A DNA stretch of 64,000 bases from Bugula neritina (taxonomy: Eukaryota; Animalia; Bryozoa): NCBI GenBank assembly GCA_964035545.1, contig OZ037769.1, forward strand, positions 8,475,929-8,539,928. Reading direction: 5' to 3'. The notes below the pieces were generated by a model. That model worked only from the letters and a program-made list of their open reading frames with translations, did not search any database and was not told where the DNA came from. Positions 1,527 through 62,700 of the stretch are shown in pieces. The position numbers and the translations under genes were made by a program. Position 1 is the stretch's first letter; every line of letters starts with the position of its first letter.

Positions 1527-1840
1527 TGTAGTAGTTTGTGGATTATAGAATGAAATCAGGCAGAGAACATAATTCCTTGTTATAGAAGAGACAAGAGAGA
1601 GAGAGAGTAGAACCCGTGTGTTTGCAGTAATTTATTGTAGCATAGATGCATCCAGTGTGAGCTCCAGTCCTGAAGTGACTGAAGCTTTAAAATGCATGTC
1701 CTTTTATACTAGTAGAACAAAGGACTTCTAGAACCTTCCACTGACAGCAGGCCGACATTTGGCGACACTGACTATGTCGGTAACCGACAGACCCAATGTC
1801 GGCATCCACCTGCCAAACTCGGTCCAACTGTCGGGTTACA
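1527..1840 (-). mobile_element. Solo LTR related to the Gypsy family A LTRs
   Basis: Begins TGTAGTAGTTTGTGG and ends GGTTACA, like the LTRs at 4292 and 9383. Has minus-strand AATAAA and TATAAAA. A related fragment lies at ~2950-3040. No clean TSD. Confidence 0.55.
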
Positions 1841-3127
1841 TGAATCAACAAAAATGAACCCAACCAAGTGTATGCTTATTGTAACTTGTAATTGGGGGAA
1901 AAGGGATTAACTATTTACTATGCTAAAAGCTTAACAGTAGCCATAGTATTTAAGGTATTAGAAAGTTACGCCACAGACTTAGCTATAACTACAGTATTTA
2001 GAAAAATAGCCATAAGTAATGTGTCAAGGGGGATAACTCCTAATATTTACCACAATATATGTAAATTAGAGAAACTGAAAGTATACCTGCTGCACTATAG
2101 ACAGACCTTTACTGACAAAGACTGCAAAGTGAGGTGGGTAGCAGATTTAGCTGAAATTAACTCTGGCAGACAAACGAAAAAATTATGTTGTGCTGAGGCA
2201 TTTTCAATAGCTTGTAACATAGTGAGAAGGTGCAGCTAAGTGCTAATGTGAAAGAAGGGAACATTATATTGGCAGAATTCCAATAGATTGCCGATTTGCA
2301 CGAGAAGGTACTATGTTATTGTGCTAGCGTGCAGAGCGGCAAATGTACTAGGAAAGTTATAGTTAGTCACAGGATCGTAGCTAGAACCACCATGTGCAGA
2401 ATCTAGATAATTGCAATGAAACTTACATAATGGTATACGTTTTGACCAAATTGTAAAGAGCATTAACAGAATTTCAAAAAACAAAGAAAGATATTAGAAA
2501 AACATATTAAGAAATGTCAAGTTTAAATTTTAGACCTAATGAAATGAATCCCCTGTGCTACAGCAGTGGAACATGGAGGGTGTAAAGTTTTACTTATAGT
2601 ATAACAACTTCATCAAAAAAAGTTCTTTTGAAAAGATAAAAAATAATATTATAGAAGAAGAATGCGAGAGCTATCTTTTCATGTATAGTTTGTTATTGTG
2701 AGACAAAAACTGTTTGAGCTATACCCTGGAAACCGTTTATATATAACATAAAGCAGTGTCTGAATCTGGAAAGTTATGACCTTAAACTAGCTGCGTATAG
2801 CTAAGTCTGTGGCGTAACTTTCTAATACCTTAAATACTATAGCTATTGTTAAGCTTTTAGCCTAGTAAATAGTTGATCTCTTTTCCGCAATTACAAGTTA
2901 CAATAAGCATACACTTGGTTGGGTTCAATTTTGCTGATTCATGTAAACTGACAGTCTACCGAGGTTCGGCTCACTGGCTGCCAACAGACCGAATGTCTGT
3001 TACCGACATGACGAATGTCGGCATACCAGCTGCCGAACTTCAGAACCTGATTAGATTTGAACTTCTTTGTTTTCAAAGTGTTGGATTTAAATTGTTTAAC
3101 TCATCCTCAAAATTATCATAAATAAGT

Positions 3128-6100
3128 TCATCTAGAAAGCTGCTGCATACCTAGAGTTACTTGTGGCGGCACCATCTCCATAATCAACATCGTTCTTGCA
3201 GAGTTCCATCCAGAGTGAGCATCACTAGATCCATAACCGTCACATGGGCCGACTACTAACTCTACTACTCTGTCACCAGCCTCCAGTCCATAGCATGTGC
3301 CATCAACTAAATATCACAACATTTTAGTGGCGCAAACATTGGTATGAAATATTTATAGAAATCAATATCAATTTAAGTTAGTCTCTGTTCTTATAAATTA
3401 TGGTTTAACCTTTACTAAATCGCATATTTTATCTAATATCTCATTAGCAAATATGGGCATTAAACATGTTCAAAAAAAGTATCCCGTTACATTGTCTTTC
3501 AAGAAAGGTTTGCTTCATGAGCATAACATATATCATATTTAAGTAAAATTTTTTTGAAGGAGAATTATAATTTAAAATGATGATTTTTTTAGACCTACTA
3601 TCTATTGCTCGATGTAAGTCTCCTGCAGTAGCACTGTAATCTAACACCTCGATAGTGTCTGGGTTAGCGCACTTGTTACCATCAAATGTCAAGTACCAGT
3701 GGTGACAAAAGTCAGCTATATTATTATGTCCTCTGGCGGCCATATGGATAATGACTCTGAGTCCCGAGTCTGCCCTAGACTTTGGGTATGTGGCTATCTG
3801 AAAACGTTGTCAAAATTAAATGACACACAAGTCCTTTAATATTGCGTCAATACTAATCTTGTTTTGTATGAATAATGAAACATATATCACATATTAACAC
3901 GATCCGCTTTCTCTTTGTGTTTATTTTAGTCATTTTGTAAAAATAACAATAAAATGTTTCCAACAACATCGTGAATAAAACCCAATACAGTTGTTCAGTA
4001 TAAACATTTGCTAAAATACTTTACAATTGTACACCTTACCATTACACTGCCTATATCTGTTTGATCTTCAAAATCTGTAGACCAATAATGTCTGATGTTT
4101 GTGTACTCATTTCTCAACTCGCATTCAGCTGATTCCTCACCTGTTTTAAAATTATTCAAAGTTTGTATTTTAAATTACAATTGTTACAATTACAATACAA
4201 TTACAATTACTTGAAGTTATCATATGTGTGTGATTTAATTTAGCAATTATGCTTTGTAGTATTTCAATTATTCCTTTACCATATTACACATTGTAGTAGT
4301 GTTGTGGGTAGAGTGAAGTTTAAGTAGGGAGCATAACTCCAATATAAGAGCAAGATGTAGTGAAAGTTCTTAGTGAATAAACCTTTATTACATAGTGGAT
4401 GCTTTAATAGGTAGTCTGTAGTAAACTGATTCTACACTGTGAGCTCGCCTGCTTTTTTACACAAAAGGGTTCTTTGTTCTCATTCTGTCTAAAAGTCGAG
4501 GCCTGATACTCGGAACTTGGTTCGATTATCGGAGCTTAAAGATCGAGATTAGATTACATCTCAAAATTGCGGGAACGTGGTCTCGTTGACCACGAACGTA
4601 TGGCCTGTGTGGCAATGTGGTATGTGCTGGTGGCGCAGCATATAGTCGTGTTAGTAAGAGTATTTGTCAAACGGGCAAAAATACATTCACAAAGTGTTGC
4701 GGGGCGTGTACACACAGCCGCCGTGTAGAGGAGAACTTCCGCTGGCACTGGCGGCATATGCGGTTGCCCGACTCGCCACAAGTTTTGTGAATCCGAGGCT
4801 AGGATTTTTTGGAGGTTCAGTGCTGGCGGGCAGTCAGAGCTCGAGGCAGGGCCAGCACATCAGTTGCATCTTCCTCAAAAGGCTCACCGAGCAGGATCAC
4901 CTGCTCTTCCTCGCAGCTAACCGGAACTTGACAGGTTTAGACGCAGGCACACTTGCGAAGGTTGATAGCACCTCAGGTGGTTGAGAGGCACTTTTCGGGG
5001 TGCTAGGAGTCAAACCAGGGGCCGGGCAGGAAGGGAGTCAGTACGATTTGTCCCAGCCTCCTCACACTCAATTGTAGTCCCTACAACAGTCAGTAGAGAC
5101 CGTGACCGGCCAGTCTTACTGCTGCCGAAACTCGGCATCTGTTTATAAGGTACCATGCTGGAGACTGGGGGTCCCGATGAATCCCAGAGAGCAACTGACC
5201 CCATGTCATGATCAAACAGGTAATCGTGAAGTAAGTCTTCTCCGAGATCCATATTGATCTCAGTCTCCAACAGGGTAGTTTTGAGTAAATCTAGTGCATA
5301 ACAATTGGTAAAGGTTGGGTTAGACTCTGATACTGGAGGATCTAACCCTAGACCAATACCTGACTGACTATTCTTTTTTGGCAAAGTCATTCCCATAGCG
5401 TAGTAAGTGTTATCAGAATTACGTTCAACCGTGGTGGAATGACTGTTTAAAATGACCGAGCCTTGTGTCACCAAGTTTTCACGTGCCAACCCCCTTGGTC
5501 ACGTGTGCGGGCAGTAATTACACCAATTTTTGAAAAAACAACTTTAACGATCGCATCCCTTCCGAATTTCAGTCCAGACTTTCTACACTCTGTCACAATT
5601 CTCCGAAATACTGAAGAGGATTTACAACCAAATTACTGGAGTAGTTGCCAGTAGTCGGTGTACTATCCCCCATGGAAGGTAGATCCATGTGCCCAACATG
5701 ATAGTCAGCCAGATATCTAGGTGGCCTGTTGGTTCTCCGACTTCTTCCCAGAGTGACTGGCTCCTGTGCTCTCGGTGACTCCTCAGGCTTTGTGGGTGGG
5801 GGGTCCCCACCTTCACCCACACTGGGGTTGGGAACGTCCTCCATTGATGGGGTGCTGGCCTTGGGGCCTGCTGCTCTGGATCTCCACCTGGGTTGGGTCA
5901 CTCTTCTTCGAGTGTTGGGTTGACGATTCAGCTCCAGGAAAGGTGGAGCTTGTCCTACTGCATCTGAACTGAAACCTGCCCAGAGTGCTACACTCGAGAC
6001 AAATGATTGAGCAGCACCTCCATCACACAGTAAGGACCCACAAACTTGGGCTGAAGCTTAGCCGACTGTCGGCGTTGCCTATGGTAGCTCGCAATCCAGA

Positions 6101-9100
6101 CTCAGTCCCTTCTCTGGTATACGAGGGGCTCCTTGGAGTCGTCCGTCCAAATCTGCGATTGTTTCTCCTGCAATGCATTATGGACCTGTCCCATGATCTC
6201 CACCAGCTTTTCCACGCACGCATGTACTGGGGACTCGGGAGCTGGAACATGGTATGTCAGATGATCCAGAACCCGTGTCTCCCAGCCGAACATCAGGAAG
6301 TTTGGGGTCTCCTGCGTGCTAGAATGTGGTGTGCTGCGGCAGGCCCGCATAATCTGAGGCAGCACCACGTCCCATTACTCCTGACTCCTGCCTAAGAGTG
6401 GGCTCCTGAGAGCGTCACCTAACATCCAGTTGTTCCTCTCCATGACTCTAGTTCCTTGCGGGTGATATGGGGTGGTTCGATTCTGATTCACCCCATAAAC
6501 GACAGAGGTCTCCTTTGAGTTGGGCTGGAACTGGGCACCCTGGTCCGTGTGTATCTATTCCGGCAGCCTGAAATAACCGAATACATTATGATCCAGGGCC
6601 CCAGCCACCATAGGGGGTGACGAATTTGGAAGAGCCAGGGCGTCTGCCCACCGGGTGAATTGGTTCGTGAGCACCAGTATCCAGGTTTTTCCTCTGGTGA
6701 ATAATAGCATAGGTCCGACGAGGTCTACTTCCACCACTTGCCACGGCCGACCAGCGTACAGCCGGCGTCGATCAGTAGGTTCCATTAGGCAGCCATGCTT
6801 ACTAGTTTGGCAGATATCGCATTGCCGTACCCACAGTCGCACGCCCCGAGTCATTCCAGGCCAGTACTATCGCAGCTGCAGACACCCGAGGACCTAACTG
6901 GCTCCAGCATGAGCCTGTTTATGGGTGTCCCAGATCAGTTCCCGTCAGAGAGCGCCTGGACATACAACGTGGTCTTACTCCTGCTGACAGTTGTTTGCTG
7001 CTAGCATCATCATCAGTAGGCTATCCAGACTGACCCTGAGGGAATCTTAACAACGGCAGAGGAATTGGAACTCAACGTCTCCCTGCCGCTTATGTTCTTC
7101 GCTAGTTCGTCAGCCTTCCTTCTTGGCCCGGAATATGTTCGCTACCGCGCCGGGTAGCGTCTCCTGGAGTCGGCACAGCTCCTTGATGTTCTGATACAGA
7201 GTGGGGTTGGCACGAAGTGCCTGGACGTCATCTGAGTGGGTTTCGGTGCGAAGATGGCCGTGCTCCTACCGATAGACGGCGCCCTCCCCTAGCTCTGTCT
7301 CCACGTCAAGGCAAGCGGGTCCCCGTCTCGCTTCTTGATGTGCAGGCATTGCTTGCAGTCCTCTACGGGCCGAGGACTCATGCCGTCAGCGTTCCCATGC
7401 TTCCGGCCAGCACGGCGCTCCATCCGATAAGATAACTCAGTAAGATTCTCTAGCCAACGAGCTACCTGGCTCGAAGGCTTTGCATGTTTACACAGCCATA
7501 TAAGTGATGCATGGTCTGTTCGTAACCTGAACGTTCTCCCATACAGATATGGCTGAAAATGCTTGACCGCCTTGAGTGCTGCTAAGATCTCCTTCCTAGT
7601 AGTTCAGTAGTTCTTTTCGGCGGCCTAAGAGTCTTGCTGTAGTAAGCTAAGACCACTTCACTTTCACCCTAGACCCAAGACAGAACAGTTCCCACACTGT
7701 GGTCACTGGCGTCGGTGTCCAAGATGTACTATTTGACTGGATCAGGATACGCCAGAATTGGCGCCTTCATTAACCATTTCTTGAGGTGGTCAAATGCCTG
7801 CTGCTTCTCTTTTGTCTACTGGCACCAAACTTCTTTAGCGGTTAGCCGATTCAGAAAGTGAGCCATCTCTGCAAACCCGGGTATGTACTGCCGATAGTAC
7901 CTTACCAGGCCAAGAAATGCCGGCAACTCAAAGAGGTCGCGGGGAACCGTCTACTCCTTCACAGCATGCACCTTCTCCGGGCCGGTAGCGACCCCGTCAC
8001 GGCCAACCACATGGCTTAGGTACGTGACTTCTGACTGCAGAAGTGCACACTTGGAGGGCTTCAACTTCAGTCCAGCTGCCTGGAGGCAGTCAAAGACTTC
8101 TCGCAGACGACTGACATGTGTCATAATGTCTGGGCAGATAACAATGATGTCATTCAGATAGATGAGAAAGGTCCTCCAGTGTAATCCACTGAGGACTTGC
8201 TCCATGACTCGCTGAAAATTTGTTGGGCAAATGTAAGCCCAAATGACAGTACTTTCCATTCCCAGAGTCCATTCTGGATTATGAGCGCTGCTGTTTACTG
8301 GGCAGCTAGACTGAGGGGCACTTGCCAGCACCTGCTAAGCAGATCCAAAACACTGAAGCACTTACTATACCCGCGAGGAAATCTACAGACTCATCTATCT
8401 GTGAGAGAATGTAGGCGTCCTGGATGTTAACACTGTTGAGTCTGCGGTAGTCCACAAAGAACCTCCAGTTACCATCCTTCTTTTTGACCAGGACTACTGG
8501 AGAGCTCTACCCACGTTGCCATATGCTCCAACAGACAGGTTAGCCAAGTGCTTTGAGACTGCTCCTCGACTGGCACGAGGGAAATTTCCCTAGGCGGCAG
8601 CCACTGTCTCTAGTGCCGGCCCCACATCCGCTTCCTGGATGGAGTGGTACTTCCCCACCAGCGCTCCAGCCCACAATCGGACGAGTTCCTTAAAGAGGTT
8701 GATACACTGCACGAGGAGTTCTCTCCCACAGTTCAGCCAATTCAGGCTGTTTGCCAGTTGGATTGCTCCGTGCCTTCTTCCACCACTCCCAGACCAGCAA
8801 TCGCCTCGCAGTTAACCCTGTAGTGAAGAGTTGCCTGGGATCTACCCGGGACCGTGTAGTCCGGCACTACCTTGACTCCGCCCACTAAGGCCCTGCAAAA
8901 CTTGTCAACAAAGACAAGTACTTTCCCAGCCATTACCACTGCTGACTTCTGAAAATCCATGTGACACTACTGTTTTTCCAGAAATGGCATCCCCAGGATG
9001 CCATCTTCCTTTAGCTGGCTGACTATGAATGTCTCGTAAATCACCTGATCACAACGCGTTCAGGCAGTGTGATGATGCTGTAGAAAGCAATGCATAACCT

Positions 9101-12100
9101 GTCCGCCAATGTATCATGTGAACCTTTGTACGGCTCTAAGCTCGCTCGCTCTCGAGTGCCAAGAGTGTCAAAAAGACGCCTACTCAGCAGGTTTGTACTG
9201 CACCCAGTGTCTAGCAGACCTTCTCTTTGTTTTAAAAACAAAGGGGGTTTTCTGAAGTTGAGAGGGTAGTTTGGGATACTCTTGCGAGTAAGCTGAATCC
9301 TCTTCCACAACCTCCTTAGGCAATGTTCTTCTATCCCTTTAATGGCCCACTTAACTATTCGGAATCTCACCACTGACACCAACGTAGTAGTTTTGTGGGT
9401 AGAATGAAGTTTAAGTGGGGAGCATAACTCCAACATAGTAAGAACAAAATGCGGTGAAAGTTCCCAGTGAATATATCTTTATTGTGGAGTGGGTGCTTTA
9501 ATAGGTAGTCTGTATCAGGCAAGCTCCAGTAGTAGACTGATTCTACACTGCGAGCTCGCCTGCTTTTATACGCAAAAAGGTTCTTTGTTCTGATTTTGTC
9601 CAAAAGCCGAAGCCCGATCATCCGCTGTTCTGATAATCGGAACTTGATCCGATTACCGGAGCCCGACAATCGGGAGTGCCGACTTTTCGACAGGGTGGAA
9701 TTACATAATCGCGTTTATATAAAGTATAAAAATGAAGTGCAAGAAAAAATAGTTCTACCACGATAAAGATGCAAAAAAAGATAACCCTACTATAACATTC
9801 ATATTCCTACCACAACAATATTACAGTTTCTTCAACTTGTTAGCTTAATCCATTCAAAGAATCACCTGCATTGACGCAGGACAATTCATCACTATTCACT
9901 TATATACTATCTATGTCAGCTACTCACTCAGCTACAGCCTTGTAAACCACAGATGACTTTGTGTTCACCATCACAAAGCAATGATTTTTTAACCACAACA
10001 TTTGTCAGGTTTCATAGCTTGTAGCCAGAAATTAGAGCAGCTCAGTTGCTTTGTGCTTTCATTCTTGTCTGATACACTTTGTCCAGACCACAACACTTGC
10101 GTTACATATATCATTAGTTACCTTTTTGATTGATTAACAGCATTCTGTACATATTTCATATTTGACCTGTTACCTTTAAAACCATAGTTATCTAATTTTA
10201 ACTTTCCCCAGAAAAGGTGATAGTGGTATGTTAAACATTTTATGCAAAAGTTTTGTAATGTTGTATGTTTCCTTTTTTTCATTCATGCCTTTGTTATCAA
10301 ATAGTATCAATGTATTGTTATAATTTCACATAGAGTTTACATCTTATTAGCTATAATTAGTAGATATATGACTTCTATGTGAATCATGCATTTCCTTATT
10401 ATTGTCATAGTCAGCATCTATATATAATGCTTGTGTAGGTATTGCTAAACAGTTAGTTAGTTGCTAGATTCCAAAGTGTTATTATCATTTTATATTCATA
10501 GTAGTTGTACCAAATAAATCAGCATGTAAAACATTACAAGTCAGCACCACCCTGTCACACACCATCAAGCATACATTATAACATGTATTATTAGCTATAG
10601 TTTTAAGTTGGCTTTTATAAACATCGTTAAAGCTCCAGCAGTGCAACATGTTATCTATCAACTGGGGTAAAAGTTAAAGTCAAACTTTTTCCTACTAATG
10701 AAAAGACCATTAAGTTCTGTACAGTTGTTGGCATATCCAAAAAGACACAAACCTGTTGTAACTCCTTGCCTCGGAGTGGAGCACTCAAATAATCAACCAC
10801 AAAATCAAACCATAAAGCCATTAGAGGTCAAGATTCAATTCCTGGCTGCATCCAGTTTCAACTATCATGACCAGTATGTTATTTTGGCAGCTAGAACAAC
10901 ATCCAGCACCAGAACTACACAGATGGAGCTAGCAGTCAACAGACAACCAACTCAACCGATAGGTTGTTATACTGTATTATTGTGGATTAAACTCCTGAAC
11001 GAACCTTCTCCAATCCTTGAGTTGCCTACTTGCCATAATCACTCAAGCTAAGTGATGGCACATCAACAATTTTTTTATATTCTTTATTTTGTTAAACTTG
11101 ATATAACTAAGCTGAATTTGTGTTTATTATTTTGGGAAACTGTAACATTGGTAATTTTAATAATGAAATCAAAAGGCAGCGGGTTGACTTGTGAAAACAT
11201 TATCAAATGTTTTGACACACTAGCTGACATTTATTCATCATAATCTGCTGAGTATTGATGTCTAAAGCCAACACTCCAAAATCCTATAAGTTTTCAAAAT
11301 GAAAGGTATTCAAAATGCTGCACAACTTGAACAGAAAATAACAAACTGTACTGACTTACACAAATCCATATTTGTATACTTTGCATCAAAACAGGATATT
11401 TTGTATTGCTCACTGGAAGGTTATCAAAACCAGCTACAAAAAGCTAAACACAACCTAGAGGAAACTTATGAGAAGTAGCACTTTATGCCAGGAGTTTATG
11501 AGCCACAGCTCAGGGTCTAAAATCAAATAAATAGATTGCATTCTGATTGTGGAACATTGAATGGTAATTCCATAGATCGCATGAGTCAACTTTCAACTAA
11601 AATAAAAACTGCTGGCTTCGCACAGAAAAATTATTGTTTTGAGATCTTAGAATATTCTGTTATTCACACTTTTAGTTTGAAATCGAATTCATCCTGTCAC
11701 TCATCTCGAGCTATTTCACAGTTACAGCTAAGATTGATGCAGGTGCCATTCAAAGCTAAAGCAGTTATACACTAAACTAATTAGTGTCTGCACATATTAT
11801 TCATGACCTAGAACAGCAAGCCAGTCAACTTACAAACAGTATCAAGCAGCAACAGTTCCAAGCTAAAATATACGCCGCACAGGCTGAAAAGTAAGTCCTA
11901 GCCTAAACCATTGCATAAGAAGAAGAAAAGGACAGCTCCATTCTTCCTCCAAAAACTATCGCCGTTCAGCATACCAGCTGCTCCATTTCCACCACTCATT
12001 CCCACACCCAAGTCTTCAACTCAAAATATCATGCAACCTCAAATTCTTCCAACTACACCTGTAACTTCTATAAACCCTTTCTTCTAGTTCACCAAGCCTC

Positions 12101-15100: not shown

Positions 15101-18100
15101 TTGCACATACATTTGACTAGCTGACTCTGCAAGGCGAGTGCATGTTGCACTTCTTTCAAGTAAGTGAGACAATGAGACCAGTTACTGTTCTAAGGCTTCA
15201 GCTTCCAGCAGCAGCAAGTGCTGTCAGATCGATAACAAAATATGTCAAGGAAGTTAACATTTCAAACATTGCCAGACACTGCTATTCAGACTAAACTGTT
15301 GATTTTTGGCAAAAAAGTAATACTGCTGATTGTTTTCACACATATGACACAAAGTAGAAACAATTGGGCATCTTTCAAATCCTGATAGCTGGAAACACGC
15401 CCCTCAACTGCCAAAAATGCAGTTGACCTCAGTTCAGAAGGCGCAAATGTGACCCAGGCAGAAAAGCACTTTGTGACAAAATTCACATTTTCAGTTAATG
15501 CTTGATTCTTATTTGCCTATTTATACTGATTGATTTGCAGTTTAAATTTTTGAAATCGGACTACTATTATAATATTGGTCCGATTTCAAAAATTTAAAGT
15601 GCAAATCAATCAGTATAAAGAGGCAAAGAAGAATTAAGCATTAACTAAAAATGTGAATTTTGTCACAAAGTGCTTTTCTGACTGCCTGGGTCACAAATGT
15701 TAAAGAAGTCAGCTCATCTGATTTACTAAGTTGTCTACAATTCTTCAGGACTGGACCCTTTATTTTTCCCGAACTATCTCAAGTGTACATCAACCCTGAC
15801 GATGTGGAGATATATCAGTCATCATTGTCATTCATGCACAAACCGTTTAATTTCTATCGATAAATACTTGGAAAAGTTTTTTGACTAGAACAGAGCAATC
15901 AGAACAATCGCCAGAATTCAAAAACACTTAAGCAAAATTCCCCAGTCAATTTCAAAATGCTAAACAAACTATTTTACAAATCATTCAAGCAGAATATTTC
16001 TCAAATTAGTTCAGCGCACTCAAGCCATCTCAGGCTTTAAAAAAATATAGTTGTCTGACAAAACTAGATACATCCCTAGACTCAAGAGTTTTACTCCACC
16101 TCTACATCAAGTTCATATTTAATCTAGCTTACTCTAGTCACATGGGTGATGTGTGGGAGCATTTGATTTGATCTGCCAAAACAATCTTTAGAGGAATAGG
16201 AAGGACACATTGTGCAAGGTTGAGCACCTCTCAGTTAAAAACCCTTCTACATGAGGCTACAACAATTATTAGCAGTAGACCTCGGGGAATCGTCTCTGAA
16301 AACAATCTACCACTCACCCCAACTATGCTTCTTACTATGAAATACCAACTCACTCTGCACCCTCTTCGTAAATTCTCTGACTCAGACCTTTACTCCCGCA
16401 AGCATTGGCGAGTCATTCAAAAGCAATTTGACCAATTCTGGCGTAATTACCGTAACAAGTTACTTCAGACATTTCAGATGTGACAGAGATGGACTAGGAA
16501 GACCCCTGAGGTGACTGTAGGTGACATCGTTCATGTCATAAAAGAAGCCGGTTTTCAAAATGAATAATCAATGACAATTATTGTATAAGTCTATGCAAAC
16601 TTTTTATTGATGAAACATGAGAATACACTTACCTAAGCAGACAGGGTTTTCCAAGATGGTATCTCCACATCCAATCATACAGACTTCTGAACTTGAACAG
16701 CTTCTACCATTGCAGTTTGACAGCTTAAAAACATAGATACATGCAACAATTACAGTTGACAATATTACAGTAAATCAGTATTAAACTAAAGATATACTTT
16801 ACATTTAAGAAATCTACATAAAACATTTTTTACACAACCTGTATTTTTGTTAGCAATTGTCCATTAATGGCTAAATTACATGATGTGTTTAACGATTTGC
16901 ATATCGTTCTTGAATCATACCAAACAGATAATAAAATAAACTTCTAGACCAGCTTTTATGCTAATTATTGTGCTTAATAATTTTAATTATTTAAGGAAAT
17001 ACCATATTAATCAGCAAGCTAAAGCCTTTTTAAATATGTAGTTTGCAGTCAATAGCCTATACTATAATTACTATGTTCCCAATATATTACTGGTAGCAGT
17101 TTTTTAACTGTGACTCAATAAGAAAAAATTCCAAATGATCTTCATAAAGCAAGCGCAATCTACTACGAAGTCAAATGGCATTTTCATCTATGAAATATTT
17201 CATGAAAATTTCCTCTCTCACCTCTCCTGTAGTCATCAATTCCATGAAATATCCATCGACCAAGTCACTTTTAGAAGATACATTCAAAGTGGAAGTGGCA
17301 CCATTTAACTCATAACACAATCCTAAAACAGCTATAATGAATTATAATAGATAGGAAATCACCCTAATGAGCTTCCAAGTATAACATAAAAATGAACAGA
17401 TAACCTGGTTTAACTGTTGTTAGAAAAGACTATAAGGTTGTAAAAGAGTGTCATGCGCGTTAGTTTGTTTTTGTATTTATTTATCCACAATATTTCACTC
17501 TATAACTTAAAATTCTTTGGTAATCGAGTACTAAATATTTTATTCAATGAAATGGTTTTACACTGAGATTGCATTGTTTCAGTCTGCAAACAATATATTT
17601 CACACAAATATTGTTTTTAAATCATCACTGAGACATTATATATTTATATTACAAGTTTATATTAAAATAATATTACATATATATCTTGGCTTATATCAGC
17701 TCAATGCAAATTAAAGATAACATGTTGGCTAGACTCCGATTACGGAGGATAAAGCCCAATGTAAATAATTGAACAATTACTGTGAGGCACACTCATAATG
17801 TCTTTTGGATCGGTAAAGATACATCTGAATGCAATGGAATTACTAGTAGAAATGACTGAATCGTGGTTTTGTAGAATTCTCACCCGACAATCCAATGGTC
17901 ACGTGTCAATTTTTTAAGTTTTATTCGGATTACAAAAGCTAATGTCATCTTGTTTAAATCTGTATTATTTTCATAATGTTACTCAAACTTTTTGATTCAT
18001 ATCATTACTTGCAGCAGTTTACATAATTTCTATTTTTCCCATTATGTTTCCAGGATACGATTCGATAGTCAATAAACTTAAGAACCTGTTGCCAAGTTGG

Positions 18101-28116: not shown

Positions 28117-57368
<29,252 letters not shown>

Positions 57369-58321
57369 GCTTGATTTGAAAGCAAAGTTCAAGAAACAGT
57401 ATTTGTGCTATTGTACTTTATGTCAACATTATTTATAATAATATAGGACAACAAAGTAATTACAGCATGTAATGAATACTCTGTTTCCATATATATGATA
57501 TAGTTATTATAATATTATCATAGATGTTGTAATCATATCGCATAAACCTCTGCTGCTTGTGAGCTTTAAAAAGAAAAGTTATTTTAGAAAACAATAGCCA
57601 CCGGAATATCAATTTTTAGTACATAAAATTATTTTGAATAGATTCATATGTTTTTTTTAATAAAGTATATGCAAATACGTCCATTGTTTCCGTTATAATG
57701 TTGTCCTTGTTTCTATTTCTATAAACTTACTTGGGTACATTAAGGTAGCTTATAAACCTCATAAGTGTAATTTTTTTATGCTAAAGATGTTGCATTATAA
57801 CATTATTGCTATAGAGAAGTTCAAAGAAACTATAGAGATATTTAGGTTTAAAAGCTAATGTTTATTGAAATACTGAAACGACTACTACTCCATTGTATAA
57901 CATACTCGGTAATCATCAATAAAATATATATTTATTCCTAATCTTACAAAATTATTTGCTATTGTTATGATATTTTCAGTATTAGGGTTGATATGCAATC
58001 CAGAGAGTCTAATTACTTGCTAGAGAACTTCACCAGGATAAGTCGAGTAAGCGAGTATATATTTTAACACAATAACACATTACAAAAACTATACAAATAC
58101 ATCTAATAATACACACATCTAGACTATTCAGCACTCTAACTTCGACTGACTAACAGCGGGAAAACTACTACTGCTACTAACTATCAAAACCGCTAATTGG
58201 CTATCAATTGTTTCGGGTCAATTACGCGACCCTGCGTACTGTGCTGCTGGTAGCTCTACAAGCCACCACACCGCCCCCACCAGCAGAAAGCCCTCTTTCT
58301 GATACAGAAAGTATTTCATTA

Positions 58322-59630
58322 TTACCCACGTACATCAGTAGACCAAAAGAAAAGACATAACATATATAAAGATACACAATAACAGACAGAGTCATTATAA
58401 CAGCAGGTTACATACAATTGGCCAGCTATAGAGAAAGAATACCGGCTAGTTGTGGTATTGGACAAGGACTCGAGCTTTCGAGCAGTCAAGCATTTGCATG
58501 ATCGTCTTGGATCCCCAAGAAGACGAGGCTTGTAGATCATTCCGGCAGCAGAACCAGAGTCAGTGTTGGGCACGACGATGTTTGGCCTGGCATATACGTA
58601 ACTTTCTTTAATCCGGCCAACCGAGCCTTTTAACTGAAAGAGTCCCGCCGTGGTATTAAGCAGATCCGGTGCTAACTGGGTAAACTCAGCCTGCAGTCGG
58701 AGGAGGCGTTCCTCTACAGTGGCCAGGCGAGCGGGGTCTGGGGACAGTGTCCATCTACGACAAAGAGGGGGACTTGGAGACCGGGTCCGTCTTTTCGTCG
58801 GGGTGGGGGAGACCTCTCCTTCTTCGGGATAGGTAAACTCTTCGGGGGTGTACACAATCTGAGGGCGGTCAGATACCAATGGAGATTGTTGCCTGGCATA
58901 GTCTAGTACGCGCTGGAAACCTGAGGTCAGGACGGCCAACAACATAGCCTTCTTCACTAGGGGTCGTATCAGAGTTAAGAATTCTGGATAGAGTTTGGCA
59001 TCCACCAGGTAATCCTCTCCGGAGAAACAGCCCGTCGCCCGATGTCTGGTGACGGGGTAGGGGTAGACATCATTATATCCACAGGGGCAGAATGTGAGTA
59101 AGAGGTGGGCGTTGACATGTAGCTTCAAGGAGCGGTGAGAGGCGCACTCCTCGTCACAAATCTGGCACCGCGTTCTTCCTTTGGATCCCCAGGCCGTTTC
59201 TATCTGCTCTTCTGTTTCCGGCGACACCCACCGCCAACGGCGGCGCAGTGGCTCGGGCCGGTCACCATTGGCATACTCCTCAGTATGCGGAGCGGGAAGT
59301 GCTCTATCCCGTACCCTGGTTGTAACTGGTCGAGTGTAATCTGAAAAAGTTTCAACAGTGTTAGTATAATACACTGCAGTGTTGTCAGCTTGAACAGCCT
59401 GGCAACTTCTCGTTCAGTTACTTCGTAAAGATTTATGGTAGTGAATAGTCAGATAGAACACGTATTGCAATGAGATTATAAAATCTCTAAGTCAAACTGA
59501 GTTCTTACTACGGTAGTTCACTAGCCTATCTCCAGTTCATTTGACTCAGTGAGTCGGAGCTGAGCAATGCAATCGAGTTTCCATATCAAGATATAGTTAA
59601 CTCACCCCACGATCTGTTGTCGTAAGACAT
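58322..59630 (-). CDS. Spliced ORF3 zinc-finger/coiled-coil accessory gene, copy 2 (exons 59606-59630 and 58322-59340; inferred ancestral stop 58560)
   Basis: Same 25-nt mini-exon, 265-nt intron 59341-59605 with TACTAAC at 59360-59366 and TTTTTCAG acceptor. CQIC-x12-H-x3-H, CPC-x12-H-x4-C, KRRTRSPSPP, leucine-rich helix. A 1-nt deletion after GRIK extends the ORF. Confidence 0.78.
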
Positions 59631-59799
59631 ACTGAATTTGTGAAATGGTTTGAACTACTGCTTAGAAACACATCTACTCTTGACTGCATCAGCGTATGAA
59701 AAGATTGAGCAACGTGGTTGGGGTGCGTGATTAAGACTTTGTGCACCCGGCGGATGAATTTTGTTTCTATTTCCGCCGATACAAAAGTTGATATTTCCG

Positions 59800-62700
59800 T
59801 GGTGTTGACAACTCCCACATTTGCTCGATACTTTTCTCGTACGGTTTTCCCCTAGACTTTCATACGCGCCGCTTTTAATGCAGTCGCATACGAAGTCTTT
59901 CAAATATGCGGGGGGTTGCCTCGTACGCTGTCCCCTTTCTAGGGAGGGGTGACACGCTCGCCGGTTTATTAGCAGGGGCCTCTAATGGCGTCTCTTCTTC
60001 ACCGTTAGCGGTCACTTCTTCTTGTTCTCCGGATGGAGCCCCTCCCTCCGTGGGGGTTTGCACTTCCGGAACCGGCTCGGTTTCTGAAAATGATGGAATC
60101 AGACTTGGCGGCGGCGGACGTGCTTTTGCTGGCAAAAGCTGTCGCTCCTCTCTCACCAAGTCTTTCTCCCGCGGTATGACCACTTCATATTCAGGTCCAT
60201 GCCGCCGTCGCCCGCGTGTTGTTGTCTGCCTCCTGGGCTCCAACAACGGGGGGGCTTTTCCCACTGCGTCGGGGCTAGCCCAATACGGCTTCAAGCAAGA
60301 CTCATTCTGGATAGACACCTGTCCTGAGCGCTCAATCTTGTACGTATGGTTGGGCATAGCCTCGACGATCACGTAGGGTCCCACGAACTTAGGCTGTAAC
60401 TTAGCCGCCTGCCCGCGACGCCTACGGTAATTGACCATCCACACCTTATCCCCCGTTTGGTAGAGGGGTGGTTCCTTGGAATCTTCGTGTCGCACCTTCC
60501 ACTGCTGTTCGCACAGTATATCGTGTGCGGCCTTCATCCGTTCCACTAGTTCACTGGCATACTCGTGAATCGAGTTGTCTAGCTTTGGAACGTGGTAGGT
60601 GAGATGGTCAGGTACCCGGGTCTCTCTCCCGAGCATCAAGAGGTGTGTGGGGTGCTACGGTATGCACACATGACCTGCGGCAACACCGTGTCCCATTCCT
60701 CTTGACTGCGTCCAAGGAGGAGACTCCGGAGCGCATCACCTAGCATCCGGTTGTTGCGCTCCACCACTCCATTACCTTGTGGGTGATAGGGGGTGGTCCT
60801 GCTCTGATTTACTCCCCAGAGGCGGCAAAGGTCGCTCATCAGTTGAGACTGGAATTGAGCGCCTTGATCAGAGTGTATCTGTTCGGGGAGACCAAAATAA
60901 CAGAATACATGTTGGTCTAGTACCCTGGCCACTGTTGGGGCTGACGCATCAGGGATAGCCAGAGCATCCGCCCACCTAGTAAAGTGGTCGGTCAGTACTA
61001 AGATCCAACTATTGCCTCTGGGGGTCAGGGGCATGGGTCCGACCAGGTCAACAGCTACCACTTGCCACAGCCTTCCAGCATGTAACCTCCGCCGTCCCGC
61101 TTCACCAAGGAGACGGCCATGCTTGCTGGCCTGGCAGATTTCGCACTGCTTTACTCTGAGCCGGACATCCCGCCCCATTTTGGGCCAATACCACCGGAGT
61201 TGCAATTTGGAGATCACTCTCTTGACCCCTGCGTGGGCCTGTTTGTGAGTGTCCCCGATTAACTCACGGCGTATGGCACTGGGGCAGACCACCCTTTTCT
61301 TCTCCGGGTGTCTGCCGTTGGCAGCTAGAGAGATGGTCAATAGACCATCCTGCCCGATCCTCAGCGAGTCGCAACGCTGGCAGAATAGCCGGAACTCGGC
61401 GCATCCCTGCCGTATGCGTTCCTCCTTGGGTCGTCGCCCGTCCTTTTTGGCCCGATATATGTCTGCCACTACCCCAGGCAACTCCTCTTGGAGCTTCTTC
61501 AGCTCCTGGACATTATCGGCCAGTACAGGATTGGTGCGGAGGTTCTGTACAACCTCCGGGGACTCGTCAACCTCCTGCCTGAGTTGACCCTGGTCCCAGT
61601 CAAACGGTGCTCCGTGGTGAGCCAATGTCTCCAGCTCACATCGCGGGGACCTCCCGTCCCTCCTCTCGATGTTGAGACACTGTTTGCAACCTCCATCAGG
61701 TCGGCGGCTCAAACCATCCGCATTGCTGTGTCTCTTGCCCGGTCGATGTTCGATCCGGTACGAGAATTCAGCTAGGATTTCGAGCCACCCGGCGACCTGA
61801 CTAGAGGGCTCTGCTCTCTTGCACAACCAGATCAGCGAGGCATGATCCGTACGCAGCCGGAACTTCCTGCCGTATAAGTATGGTCTGAAGTGCTTTACTG
61901 ACTTGATTACTGCCAGCAGCTCCTTGCGGGTAGTGCAGTAATTTCGTTCAGTGGGAGAGAGAGACTTGCTGTAGTAGGCTACTACTACCTCTCGGCCTTC
62001 CTGCACTTGAGACAGCACAGCGCCAACATTTTGGTCACTGGCGTCAGTGTCGAGGATGTACTCCAGAATGGGGTCTGGGTAGGCCAAGATGGGCGCCGTT
62101 AGTAGGCAGCCCTTAAGGCGGTCGAACGCTCCTTGTTCGACTGGGGTCCACTGCCACGTCACTCCCTTTGCGATGAGCCGGTTTAACGGCTGTGCTATGC
62201 CCGCAAAGTCTGGTATGTATTGCCTGTAATACCCTACCAGCCCCAAGAAAGCCCTAAGTCCGGTCAAGTCTTGGGGGGTGACCCAGTCTTCTATTGCCCG
62301 TACCTTTTCGGGATCCGTTGCCACGCCGTTTCGGCCGACAACGTGCCCCAGGTACTTGACCTCCAGCTGCAATAGAGCGCACTTGGAAGGTTTGAGCTTA
62401 AGACCGGCACCTCGGAGTCTCTCGAAGACCTCCTGCAGACGACTGACATGCGTCTCGAAGTCTGGGGAGATCACGATGACATCGTCGAGGTAGATCAGCA
62501 GCGTCTTCCAATGGAGCCCGCTGAGGACTTGCTCCATCAGCCTCTGGAAGGTGGCTGGGGCGGAGGTTAACCCGAAAGGCAACACCTTCCACTTCCACAA
62601 ACCGTCCCGTGTGATAAACGCCGCTTTCTCCTGGGCGTCGGGACTCAGAGGAACTTGCCAGTAGCCACTCAGCAAGTCTAACGTACTGAAGTACTTGCTG

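Follow-up and report, generated by a model that had tools for sequence, protein, structure and literature searches.

A zinc-finger accessory gene family at the env position of Gypsy retrotransposons in the bryozoan Bugula neritina

Introduction

Accessory genes other than env are known from few Gypsy elements (Metaviridae) of animals, namely CERV and the small open reading frames (sORFs) of the MDG1 group. Here we describe ORF3, a gene for a zinc-finger protein which is carried by three Gypsy elements with long terminal repeats (LTRs), named A, B1 and B2. All of them are located on the minus strand of a 64,000-nucleotide (nt) stretch of AT-rich animal DNA from the bryozoan Bugula neritina (assembly GCA_964035545.1, contig OZ037769.1, positions 8,475,929 to 8,539,928), which was analyzed as a whole and is called the window below; positions are those of the window.

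In the A and B elements, ORF3 follows pol and precedes the 3′ LTR, which corresponds to the env position of retroviruses and is shared with the env-coding ORF3 of errantiviruses (gypsy/gypsy clade). In contrast to errantivirus env, it encodes a zinc-finger and coiled-coil protein and not a fusogen. No segment of transmembrane strength was found in 73 of 78 long members of the family (the maximum 19-residue hydropathy exceeds 1.6 in the other five and reaches 1.8 at most), and env families are absent from the Pfam matches of 112 members. The env gene of insect Metaviridae is spliced from upstream exons, which in one subclade come from within gag (PMC12992720), and for ORF3 a comparable splicing from the start of gag is suggested below.

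Cer1 of Caenorhabditis elegans encodes the accessory protein CERV of 517 amino acids (aa), which is translated from a spliced mRNA with gag-region exons and shares the gag N-terminus. It consists of H, M and G domains with a leucine-zipper-like helix, a cysteine-based finger (C4 loop) and basic stretches, and it regulates Cer1; it reportedly lacks homologues outside nematodes (PMC10309623). ORF3, which we know from sequence alone, resembles CERV in its helix, cysteine finger, basic stretches and presumed self-regulation. The two proteins are set apart, by description only, by the location of ORF3 after pol, its C2H2- and C2HC-type fingers and its single long helix; H, M (C4 loop) and G-protein-like domains of the CERV type were not found in the ORF3 model or among its ligands. 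sORF1 and sORF2 of the Drosophila MDG1 group are, like ORF3, selected accessory ORFs of Metaviridae without env, but they are short and located upstream of gag, and sORF2 is a membrane protein (PMC11952523). Accessory genes were also described in plant Gypsy elements (PMC13547354, PMC8220671, PMC2774666). Zinc fingers are not mentioned in the searched passages of two surveys of annelid and metazoan elements (PMC8556966, PMC13524379). No description of the ORF3 family was found by a literature search, outside of which lay Repbase, Dfam and article supplements, where the family may be annotated.

Foamy viruses encode their own transactivator, Tas (Bel1), at the 3′ side of the element. Tas combines a part for DNA binding with an acidic region for activation, is expressed from an internal promoter and has no C2H2 pair. 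ORF3 is similar to it in its 3′ placement and in its layout, with a predicted activation function, and differs by the C2H2 pair.

Results

Homology and breadth of the ORF3 family

The preliminary description of the window had claimed that family A, in spite of unrelated LTRs, carries a double zinc-finger ORF3 homologous to that of family B, at the same position and with the same finger spacing. The LTRs of A and B are indeed unrelated, with a best local match of 17 nt. The core domains of A and B2 show 23 identical residues out of 88 (26%) with a score of 102, which was reached by none of 2000 plain shuffles (maximum 48) and by none of 2000 shuffles with fixed Cys and His (maximum 69). A profile of 25 B-type homologues from outside the window matches A at 4885-4673 (independent E-value, iE, 2.9e-6) and at 4686-4549 (iE 4.3e-4), and the match takes in the helix preceding finger 1 as well as the strand that follows finger 2. 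The homology between A and B ORF3 is confirmed and goes beyond the Cys/His pattern and far beyond chance. Solved C2H2 fingers in the PDB match profile positions 83-120 (one row to 142), essentially finger 1 only, and a zf-C2H2_4 match in Pfam occurs in 10 of 112 members, so the similarity exceeds that to generic C2H2 fingers.

The region 4559-5290 (minus strand) is the decayed and broken ORF3 of element A. It contains stops at 4819, 4801, 4653 and 4563. The two fingers lie in different frames, with a frame change between them, and at least one more change occurs between 5012 and about 4925. Finger 2 of A has no second cysteine, and its last spacing is x5 versus x4 in B; the claim of a common position holds, that of a common spacing does not hold for finger 2. 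The linker, the coiled-coil-like helix and the polypurine tract (PPT) are all missing, the C-terminus being lost at the 3′ LTR (4558). A continuous ORF3 is consequently lacking in the window copy of A but is found in its relatives. The closest four A-type proteins (P0155, P0158, P0162, P0177) share 57-60 of 89-93 core residues with it (62-66%); the A-type relatives include proteins that are uninterrupted or nearly so, and several run on into the C-terminal helix. The frame at 5252-5016 of A is matched in P0188, P0195, P0177, P0169 and P0163 (0 or 1 of 200 shuffles; 45 N-termini tested), and therefore belongs to the same protein as the fingers.

A word search revealed 112 B-type proteins, and a profile search of 1.84 billion representative proteins gave 123 matches at E ≤ 0.001, 67 of them at ≤ 1e-10. 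P0232, which matches by its coil only, was taken as a false match and left out of the family alignment (112 rows). In a core tree of 107 rows, A of the window falls into a supported group of 9 rows (99/85) and B2 into a separate group of 41 rows (97/95); the remainder forms a third group and a deep, diverse group. This tree is based on few columns and a midpoint root, omits P0126 and rows with fewer than 85 core residues, and places P0234 on a long branch. Named members come from Watersipora subatra and B. neritina (4 of the 20 clusters looked up). The core domain is present twice in P0137, P0235 and P0184, which have a single C-terminal coil and are possibly domesticated; P0137 and P0235 are annotated proteins of W. 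subatra, and B. neritina has two neighbouring locus tags in the family.

The linkage of the family to Gypsy elements rests on the three elements of the window and on related contigs, in which the integrase end, an island at 5314-5350 and the finger region are joined; the deep group stands apart from this. All contigs compared with A and B derive from one sequencing run of unrecorded kind, behave as DNA and may come from the same source as the window. In P0126, an integrase-tail-like segment continues in frame into the ORF3 core. A deletion in another B-type element would produce such a fusion, which is an independent sign of linkage to pol.

Outside these proteins and contigs little was found. 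The finger pattern occurs once in viral contigs and 10 times in metagenome contigs, and all 11 matches are chance matches without likeness to Gypsy or ORF3. Protein-based scans of viral and prokaryote contigs gave no relative, none of the 30 candidates from a word search with the finger-1 frame of A scored, and the Atlas returned unnamed clusters and generic C2H2 leads only.

Selection on ORF3

Between B1 and B2, ORF3 differs from the acceptor to the core end by 15 synonymous and 13 nonsynonymous changes, which corresponds to a ratio of nonsynonymous to synonymous rates (dN/dS) of 0.28 (p 9e-4). In the two remaining frames the ratio is 1.16 and 2.9, and in pol of the same elements it is 0.27. 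For the helix the ratio is also 0.28, based on few changes (p 0.09). ORF3 in family B is under purifying selection, on a par with pol.

Protein anatomy

Members of the family consist of a core of about 115 aa, a Pro/Arg linker and a C-terminal coiled-coil-like helix. The core comprises a C2H2 finger, a C-x-C-x12-H-x3-5-C finger and packing helices. In the 112 aligned rows, the ligands C34, C37, H50, H54, C60, C62 and H75 are kept in 95-99% of the rows with a residue at the position; the first Cys is present in 100 of 105 rows and the last ligand, C81, in 90 of 103. Conservation extends to non-ligands, mainly W13 (91/100) and D88 (101/107), and also T18, I22 and F59. The x12 spacing of finger 1 occurs in 118 of 129 matches. 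Its helix is basic, with R/K at +2 in 80 of 109 rows and at +5 in 89 of 109, whereas finger 2 shows D at +2 in 50 of 110 and R/K at +6 in 46 of 108. An acidic-hydrophobic N-terminal patch is found in A-type, third-group and many deep members. Linker and tail are rich in Arg and in Ser-Pro, and the tail is heptad-like in 68 of 78 long-tailed members according to a crude, uncalibrated score.

AlphaFold predicts, from the 112-row alignment, a confident core (residues 1-120) which is connected by a loose linker to a helix (187-225), with a mean predicted local distance difference test (pLDDT) of 85.8 and values above 90 in ten-residue blocks over residues 11-120. An earlier fold from 26 B-type rows was poor (pLDDT 42) and was set aside. 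Foldseek gave no match up to E 0.001 in PDB and BFVD, and a VIA fold search matched the C-terminal helix only (Z ≤ 4.8), with the core barely covered.

Finger 1 follows the C-x2-C-x12-H-x3-H pattern of classical tandem C2H2 proteins (PF00096/PF13894; Zif268, WT1, SALL), to which ORF3 shows weak matches in Pfam, PDB sequences and Foldseek. The Krüppel-type consensus consists of a TGEKP-type 7-residue linker and a second finger with C-x2-4-C. Neither was found in ORF3: the linker between the fingers has 5 hydrophobic residues in 129 of 129 matches, and finger 2 starts with a C-x-C knuckle. ORF3 further differs by a last finger-2 ligand which is mostly Cys and by the conserved surrounding helices and strand.

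Splice signals and the start of ORF3

In both B elements a branch motif and a phase-1 acceptor precede the ORF3 core. Among the B-type proteins that reach the acceptor, 21 of 22 (P0072 placed by hand) read [FL]-[SL]-[DG] at this place, as YAG acceptors would give. The exception is P0043, in which 14 different residues ending in Glu are joined exactly at the acceptor Asp, and its close relative P0072 reads through the intron. In B1, too, a phase-1 donor in gag is preceded by 14 codons, the last of which encodes Glu; the P0043 leader and the B1 gag start have the same length and last residue and are identical at 4 of 14 positions. This agreement suggests that ORF3 may be made, similar to env, from a subgenomic RNA spliced from the gag start to the ORF3 acceptor. 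The local ATG mini-exon of family B, with its good donor, may provide an internal start as an alternative.

For element A, the preliminary description had proposed an internal promoter with paired E-boxes, an ATG mini-exon and a phase-1 intron of 69 nt. The motifs it named (fingers, ATG, donor, branch motif, acceptor and CACGTG pair) are all present in A, and some features would fit such a gene model. An ATG with eight codons and a GGG/GTGAGT donor in the right phase is retained in B1 as well as in B2, with an intron of 265 nt in B versus 69 nt in A, and P0026 begins with Val-Ser at the matching place, as a retained GTGAG would give. CACGTG, however, is absent from B1 and B2 and not enriched in the window (5 observed versus 6.9 expected), and a role of the pair as E-boxes is unsupported. 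The A donor (CAG/GTATTG at 5360/5359) agrees with U1 at 6 of 9 positions only, a value which five others of the 84 GTs reach as well, and is located at the foot of a hairpin. Of 41 contigs aligned to A, 39 are less than 95% alike. Similarity persists in islands at about 4550-4780, 5170-5372 and 5597-5760; from the ORF3 side it extends only to about 5370 and does not reach the ATG at 5396, and in several contigs the interval 5370-5600 is bridged by unlike sequence. The leader of P0043, finally, has 14 residues and not 8 or 12, and points to the gag-start donor. The internal promoter with mini-exon and short intron therefore appears improbable, even if it could coexist with splicing from the gag start, and a short intron behind the mini-exon is hardly a better candidate for the 69-nt segment.

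The segment (5291-5359) is in phase 1, in frame and stop-free, and most of it is taken up by the predicted stem-loop. This stem-loop is the strongest of 135 windows in the 3′ region of A (0 of 200 shuffles as strong), coincides with the most widely kept island in the relatives (5314-5350), and contains the branch motif in its 3′ arm. Chances are about even that the segment is the structured 3′ end of a long intron with its acceptor at 5291. It is possible, though less probable, that the segment is coding and that A-type ORF3 starts further up, at an acceptor at 5360 or the ATG at 5396, which would change the gene model and not the function. The segment lies inside an open frame of 161 codons, the alignment with P0166 starts at 5327 (z 6.6), and the frame stays open at the corresponding place of P0163 and P0193. 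Differences in the contigs favour third positions, 4 of 5 listed inside the segment (p 0.045) and 7 of 11 in 5208-5328 (p 0.039), but the test uses a partial list of differences, and these sites are accounted for by the hairpin as well. At 5291, branch motif and AG are arranged as in B, and the Leu-Asp of the acceptor position forms the very start of P0222; both observations argue against a coding segment.

Elements and other features of the window

The coordinates of the features are listed in Table 1. Family B is younger than A and very abundant: 1473 contigs of the run align to 57900-60300, most of them 90-99+% alike. The 5′ LTR of A ends in CG, while TG...CA LTR ends were found otherwise. 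A primer-binding site (PBS) starting with TGG adjoins each 5′ LTR (A, B1); that of A we take to be of tRNA-Leu type, the same as in B1. Between PBS and protease, gag of A is deleted. The order protease, reverse transcriptase, RNase H and integrase was identified by Pfam in pol of B1 and B2, and the A pol is collinear with that of B1 at 48-78% aa identity in the main blocks. B1 is flanked by a 4-bp target-site duplication, ATAT (42164-42167, 50289-50292), whereas no duplication was found for A, whose flanks ATTA and ATGT do not match. Rfam gave no match within element A.

Table 1 Features of the three Gypsy elements in the window
Feature	Position	Strand	Remarks
Element A	4292-9705	-	LTRs 86% identical; gag deleted; pol with many stops and frame changes
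A 5′ LTR	9383..9705	-	228/266 (86%) identical to 3′ LTR over aligned columns
A primer-binding-site-like sequence	9364..9381	-	
A decayed pol (protease, reverse transcriptase, RNase H, integrase)	5593..9217	-	Many stops, frame changes; integrase tail ends at stop 5595-5593
CACGTG pair	5480-5485, 5500-5505		A only
A proposed ATG mini-exon	5360..5396	-	ATG at 5396; motif present, unsupported
A predicted RNA stem-loop	5307..5360	-	Core arms 5348-5340 / 5325-5317; z -5.4
A candidate branch motif and phase-1 acceptor	5291..5323	-	CTAAC (5323-5319); CACTAG ending 5291; no other AG between; layout as B acceptor
A ORF3 N-terminal coding part	5013..5290	-	Acidic-hydrophobic patch near 5252-5200
A ORF3 core	4559..4925	-	Lead-in helix, two fingers, start of following strand and helix; four stops, frame change; cut at LTR
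A C2H2 finger	4756-4694	-	CRQC-x12-H-x3-H; Cys codons 4756, 4747; His 4708, 4696
A second finger	4677-4612	-	FCP..x12-H..C; Cys 4677, His 4632, Cys 4614
A 3′ LTR	4292..4558	-	Abuts truncated ORF3; no PPT
Element B1	42168-50288	-	LTRs 98% identical (285/291)
B1 gag start	49900..49948	-	14 codons and one base, then phase-1 donor AAG/GTGAGC at 49905; putative first exon of ORF3 mRNA
B1 ORF3	42753..43506	-	Branch motif, phase-1 acceptor (43483); internal deletion and frame change near 43000
Element B2	57963 to window end	-	
B stem-loop at integrase end	59855..59900 (B2)	-	z -6.8; B1 44045-44005, z -5.8
B local ATG mini-exon	59600..59631	-	GGG/GTGAGT donor (59605; 43748 in B1)
B2 ORF3	58563..59364	-	Branch motif TACTAAC, phase-1 acceptor (59341); core, Pro/Arg linker, C-terminal helix; frame change near 58605

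Behind the integrase end, B1 and B2 each contain several strong stem-loops close together (43865-44045, 59725-59900), and the two differences between the copies in the main stem preserve the pairing. Relative to B2, the integrase tail of B1 contains an insertion of about 750 nt (44400-45200); P0106 ends in a translated stretch of this insert, indicating that the insert itself is a repeat. Host exons were observed at 3447-3809 (minus strand; CTHRC1 C-terminal-like) and at 30141-30503 and 39809-40111 (plus strand; F5/8 type C and receptor tyrosine phosphatase Fn3), and B1 and B2 may sit inside introns of a phosphatase gene. Together with the bryozoan homologues of ORF3, these exons suggest that the host is an invertebrate. 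Palindromic or inverted-repeat elements at 15448-15695, 50974-51394 and 1774-3009 are probably non-autonomous DNA transposons.

Discussion

ORF3 is a real, old and selected family of accessory genes. The preliminary description had regarded it as an old feature of a Gypsy clade under selection and not as a single capture of host DNA. This is borne out by homology outside the ligands, the dN/dS of 0.28 in frame, 123 matches with a common architecture, and contigs that join integrase end and fingers. That a host C2H2 fragment was captured once and carried passively, or that A and B merely have a common generic finger pattern, is very improbable. The weak generic C2H2 scores of some members (zf-C2H2_4) and the annotation of bryozoan homologues as genes would fit it, but purifying selection acts in the coding frame only, the homology survives the fixing of Cys and His, PDB fingers cover essentially finger 1, and the same architecture recurs across deep branches. 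Passive capture is largely refuted for B, although the gene may have come from a host in ancient times and been selected afterwards.

A finger pair combined with an acidic patch, a basic linker and a coiled-coil-like helix, but no membrane anchor, is the layout of a dimeric transcription activator. We favour, tentatively and at a little less than an even chance, that the ORF3 protein is a nuclear nucleic-acid-binding self-regulator, which is probably translated from a subgenomic RNA after splicing and probably activates transcription from the LTR of its own element. Splicing from the gag-start donor to the phase-1 acceptor would yield the ORF3 mRNA, and the hairpin of A might damp the acceptor, so that unspliced genome RNA would be left. 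The protein would form dimers through its C-terminal helix, bind the LTR through its fingers and activate through the acidic patch. Several observations weigh against this. No common motif that could be a shared target was found between the A and B LTRs. The short hydrophobic linker between the fingers and position +6 of finger 1, mostly Leu or Val, are unlike canonical base-reading fingers, and the best Foldseek match to DNA-binding finger pairs is not significant (E 0.87 over 55 columns). B-type proteins contain a short acidic stretch only, without a clear acidic patch. The splicing part draws on P0043, one protein known without its DNA or gag, and the gag start of A is deleted. Only three elements are known as DNA, most homologues are known as proteins without their genomic surroundings, and those from bryozoans carry annotations as ordinary genes.

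Rather unlikely, but the nearest competitor to an LTR activator, is a function like that of HIV Rev or CERV of Cer1, in which ORF3 would oligomerise on structured RNA near the acceptor and export unspliced RNA or block splicing. Both families have strong stem-loops in the interval from the integrase end to the ORF3 acceptor, a location that would restrict them to unspliced RNA. In A, the branch motif is hidden in the hairpin. Among the 40 of 107 differences listed, three fall on paired sites of this hairpin, where G-U pairs would remain, and compensatory double changes were not observed. The Arg-rich and Ser-Pro-rich linker and tail fit such a role, and CERV, a spliced nuclear export factor of a Gypsy element with zipper and Cys loop, is a precedent (PMC10309623). 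On the other hand, the hairpins of A and B differ in sequence and place, the acidic patch would be left without explanation, and C4 loop, G-like domain and gag-region exons of CERV were not seen in ORF3. Considerably less probable is an anti-silencing or decoy factor which binds host chromatin or silencing proteins. Plant VANC and an Athila domain are described as anti-silencing proteins or coiled-coil multimers (PMC13547354), and ORF3 diverges much faster than pol between the families (26% versus 48-78% identity), as a conflict with the host would predict. Neither sequence nor fold likeness of ORF3 to anti-silencing factors was found, and the comparison of the B copies yields the same dN/dS as for pol and no indication of positive selection.

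Gypsy families with only about 60% identical pol have thus retained one accessory family, the relatives of which reach bryozoan proteins. If ORF3 is a regulator, these elements would have a self-control similar to that by Tas or Rev and might be a source or sink of host zinc-finger genes. More speculatively, and with the odds rather against it, a widespread animal Gypsy lineage could represent 'complex' retroelements, which would carry their own dimeric zinc-finger transcription factor in place of env, with env-like splicing and a hairpin gate at the branch point. The undescribed finger family would then be spread across lophotrochozoans and may have been a source of host genes, such as those for the two-domain proteins of bryozoans.

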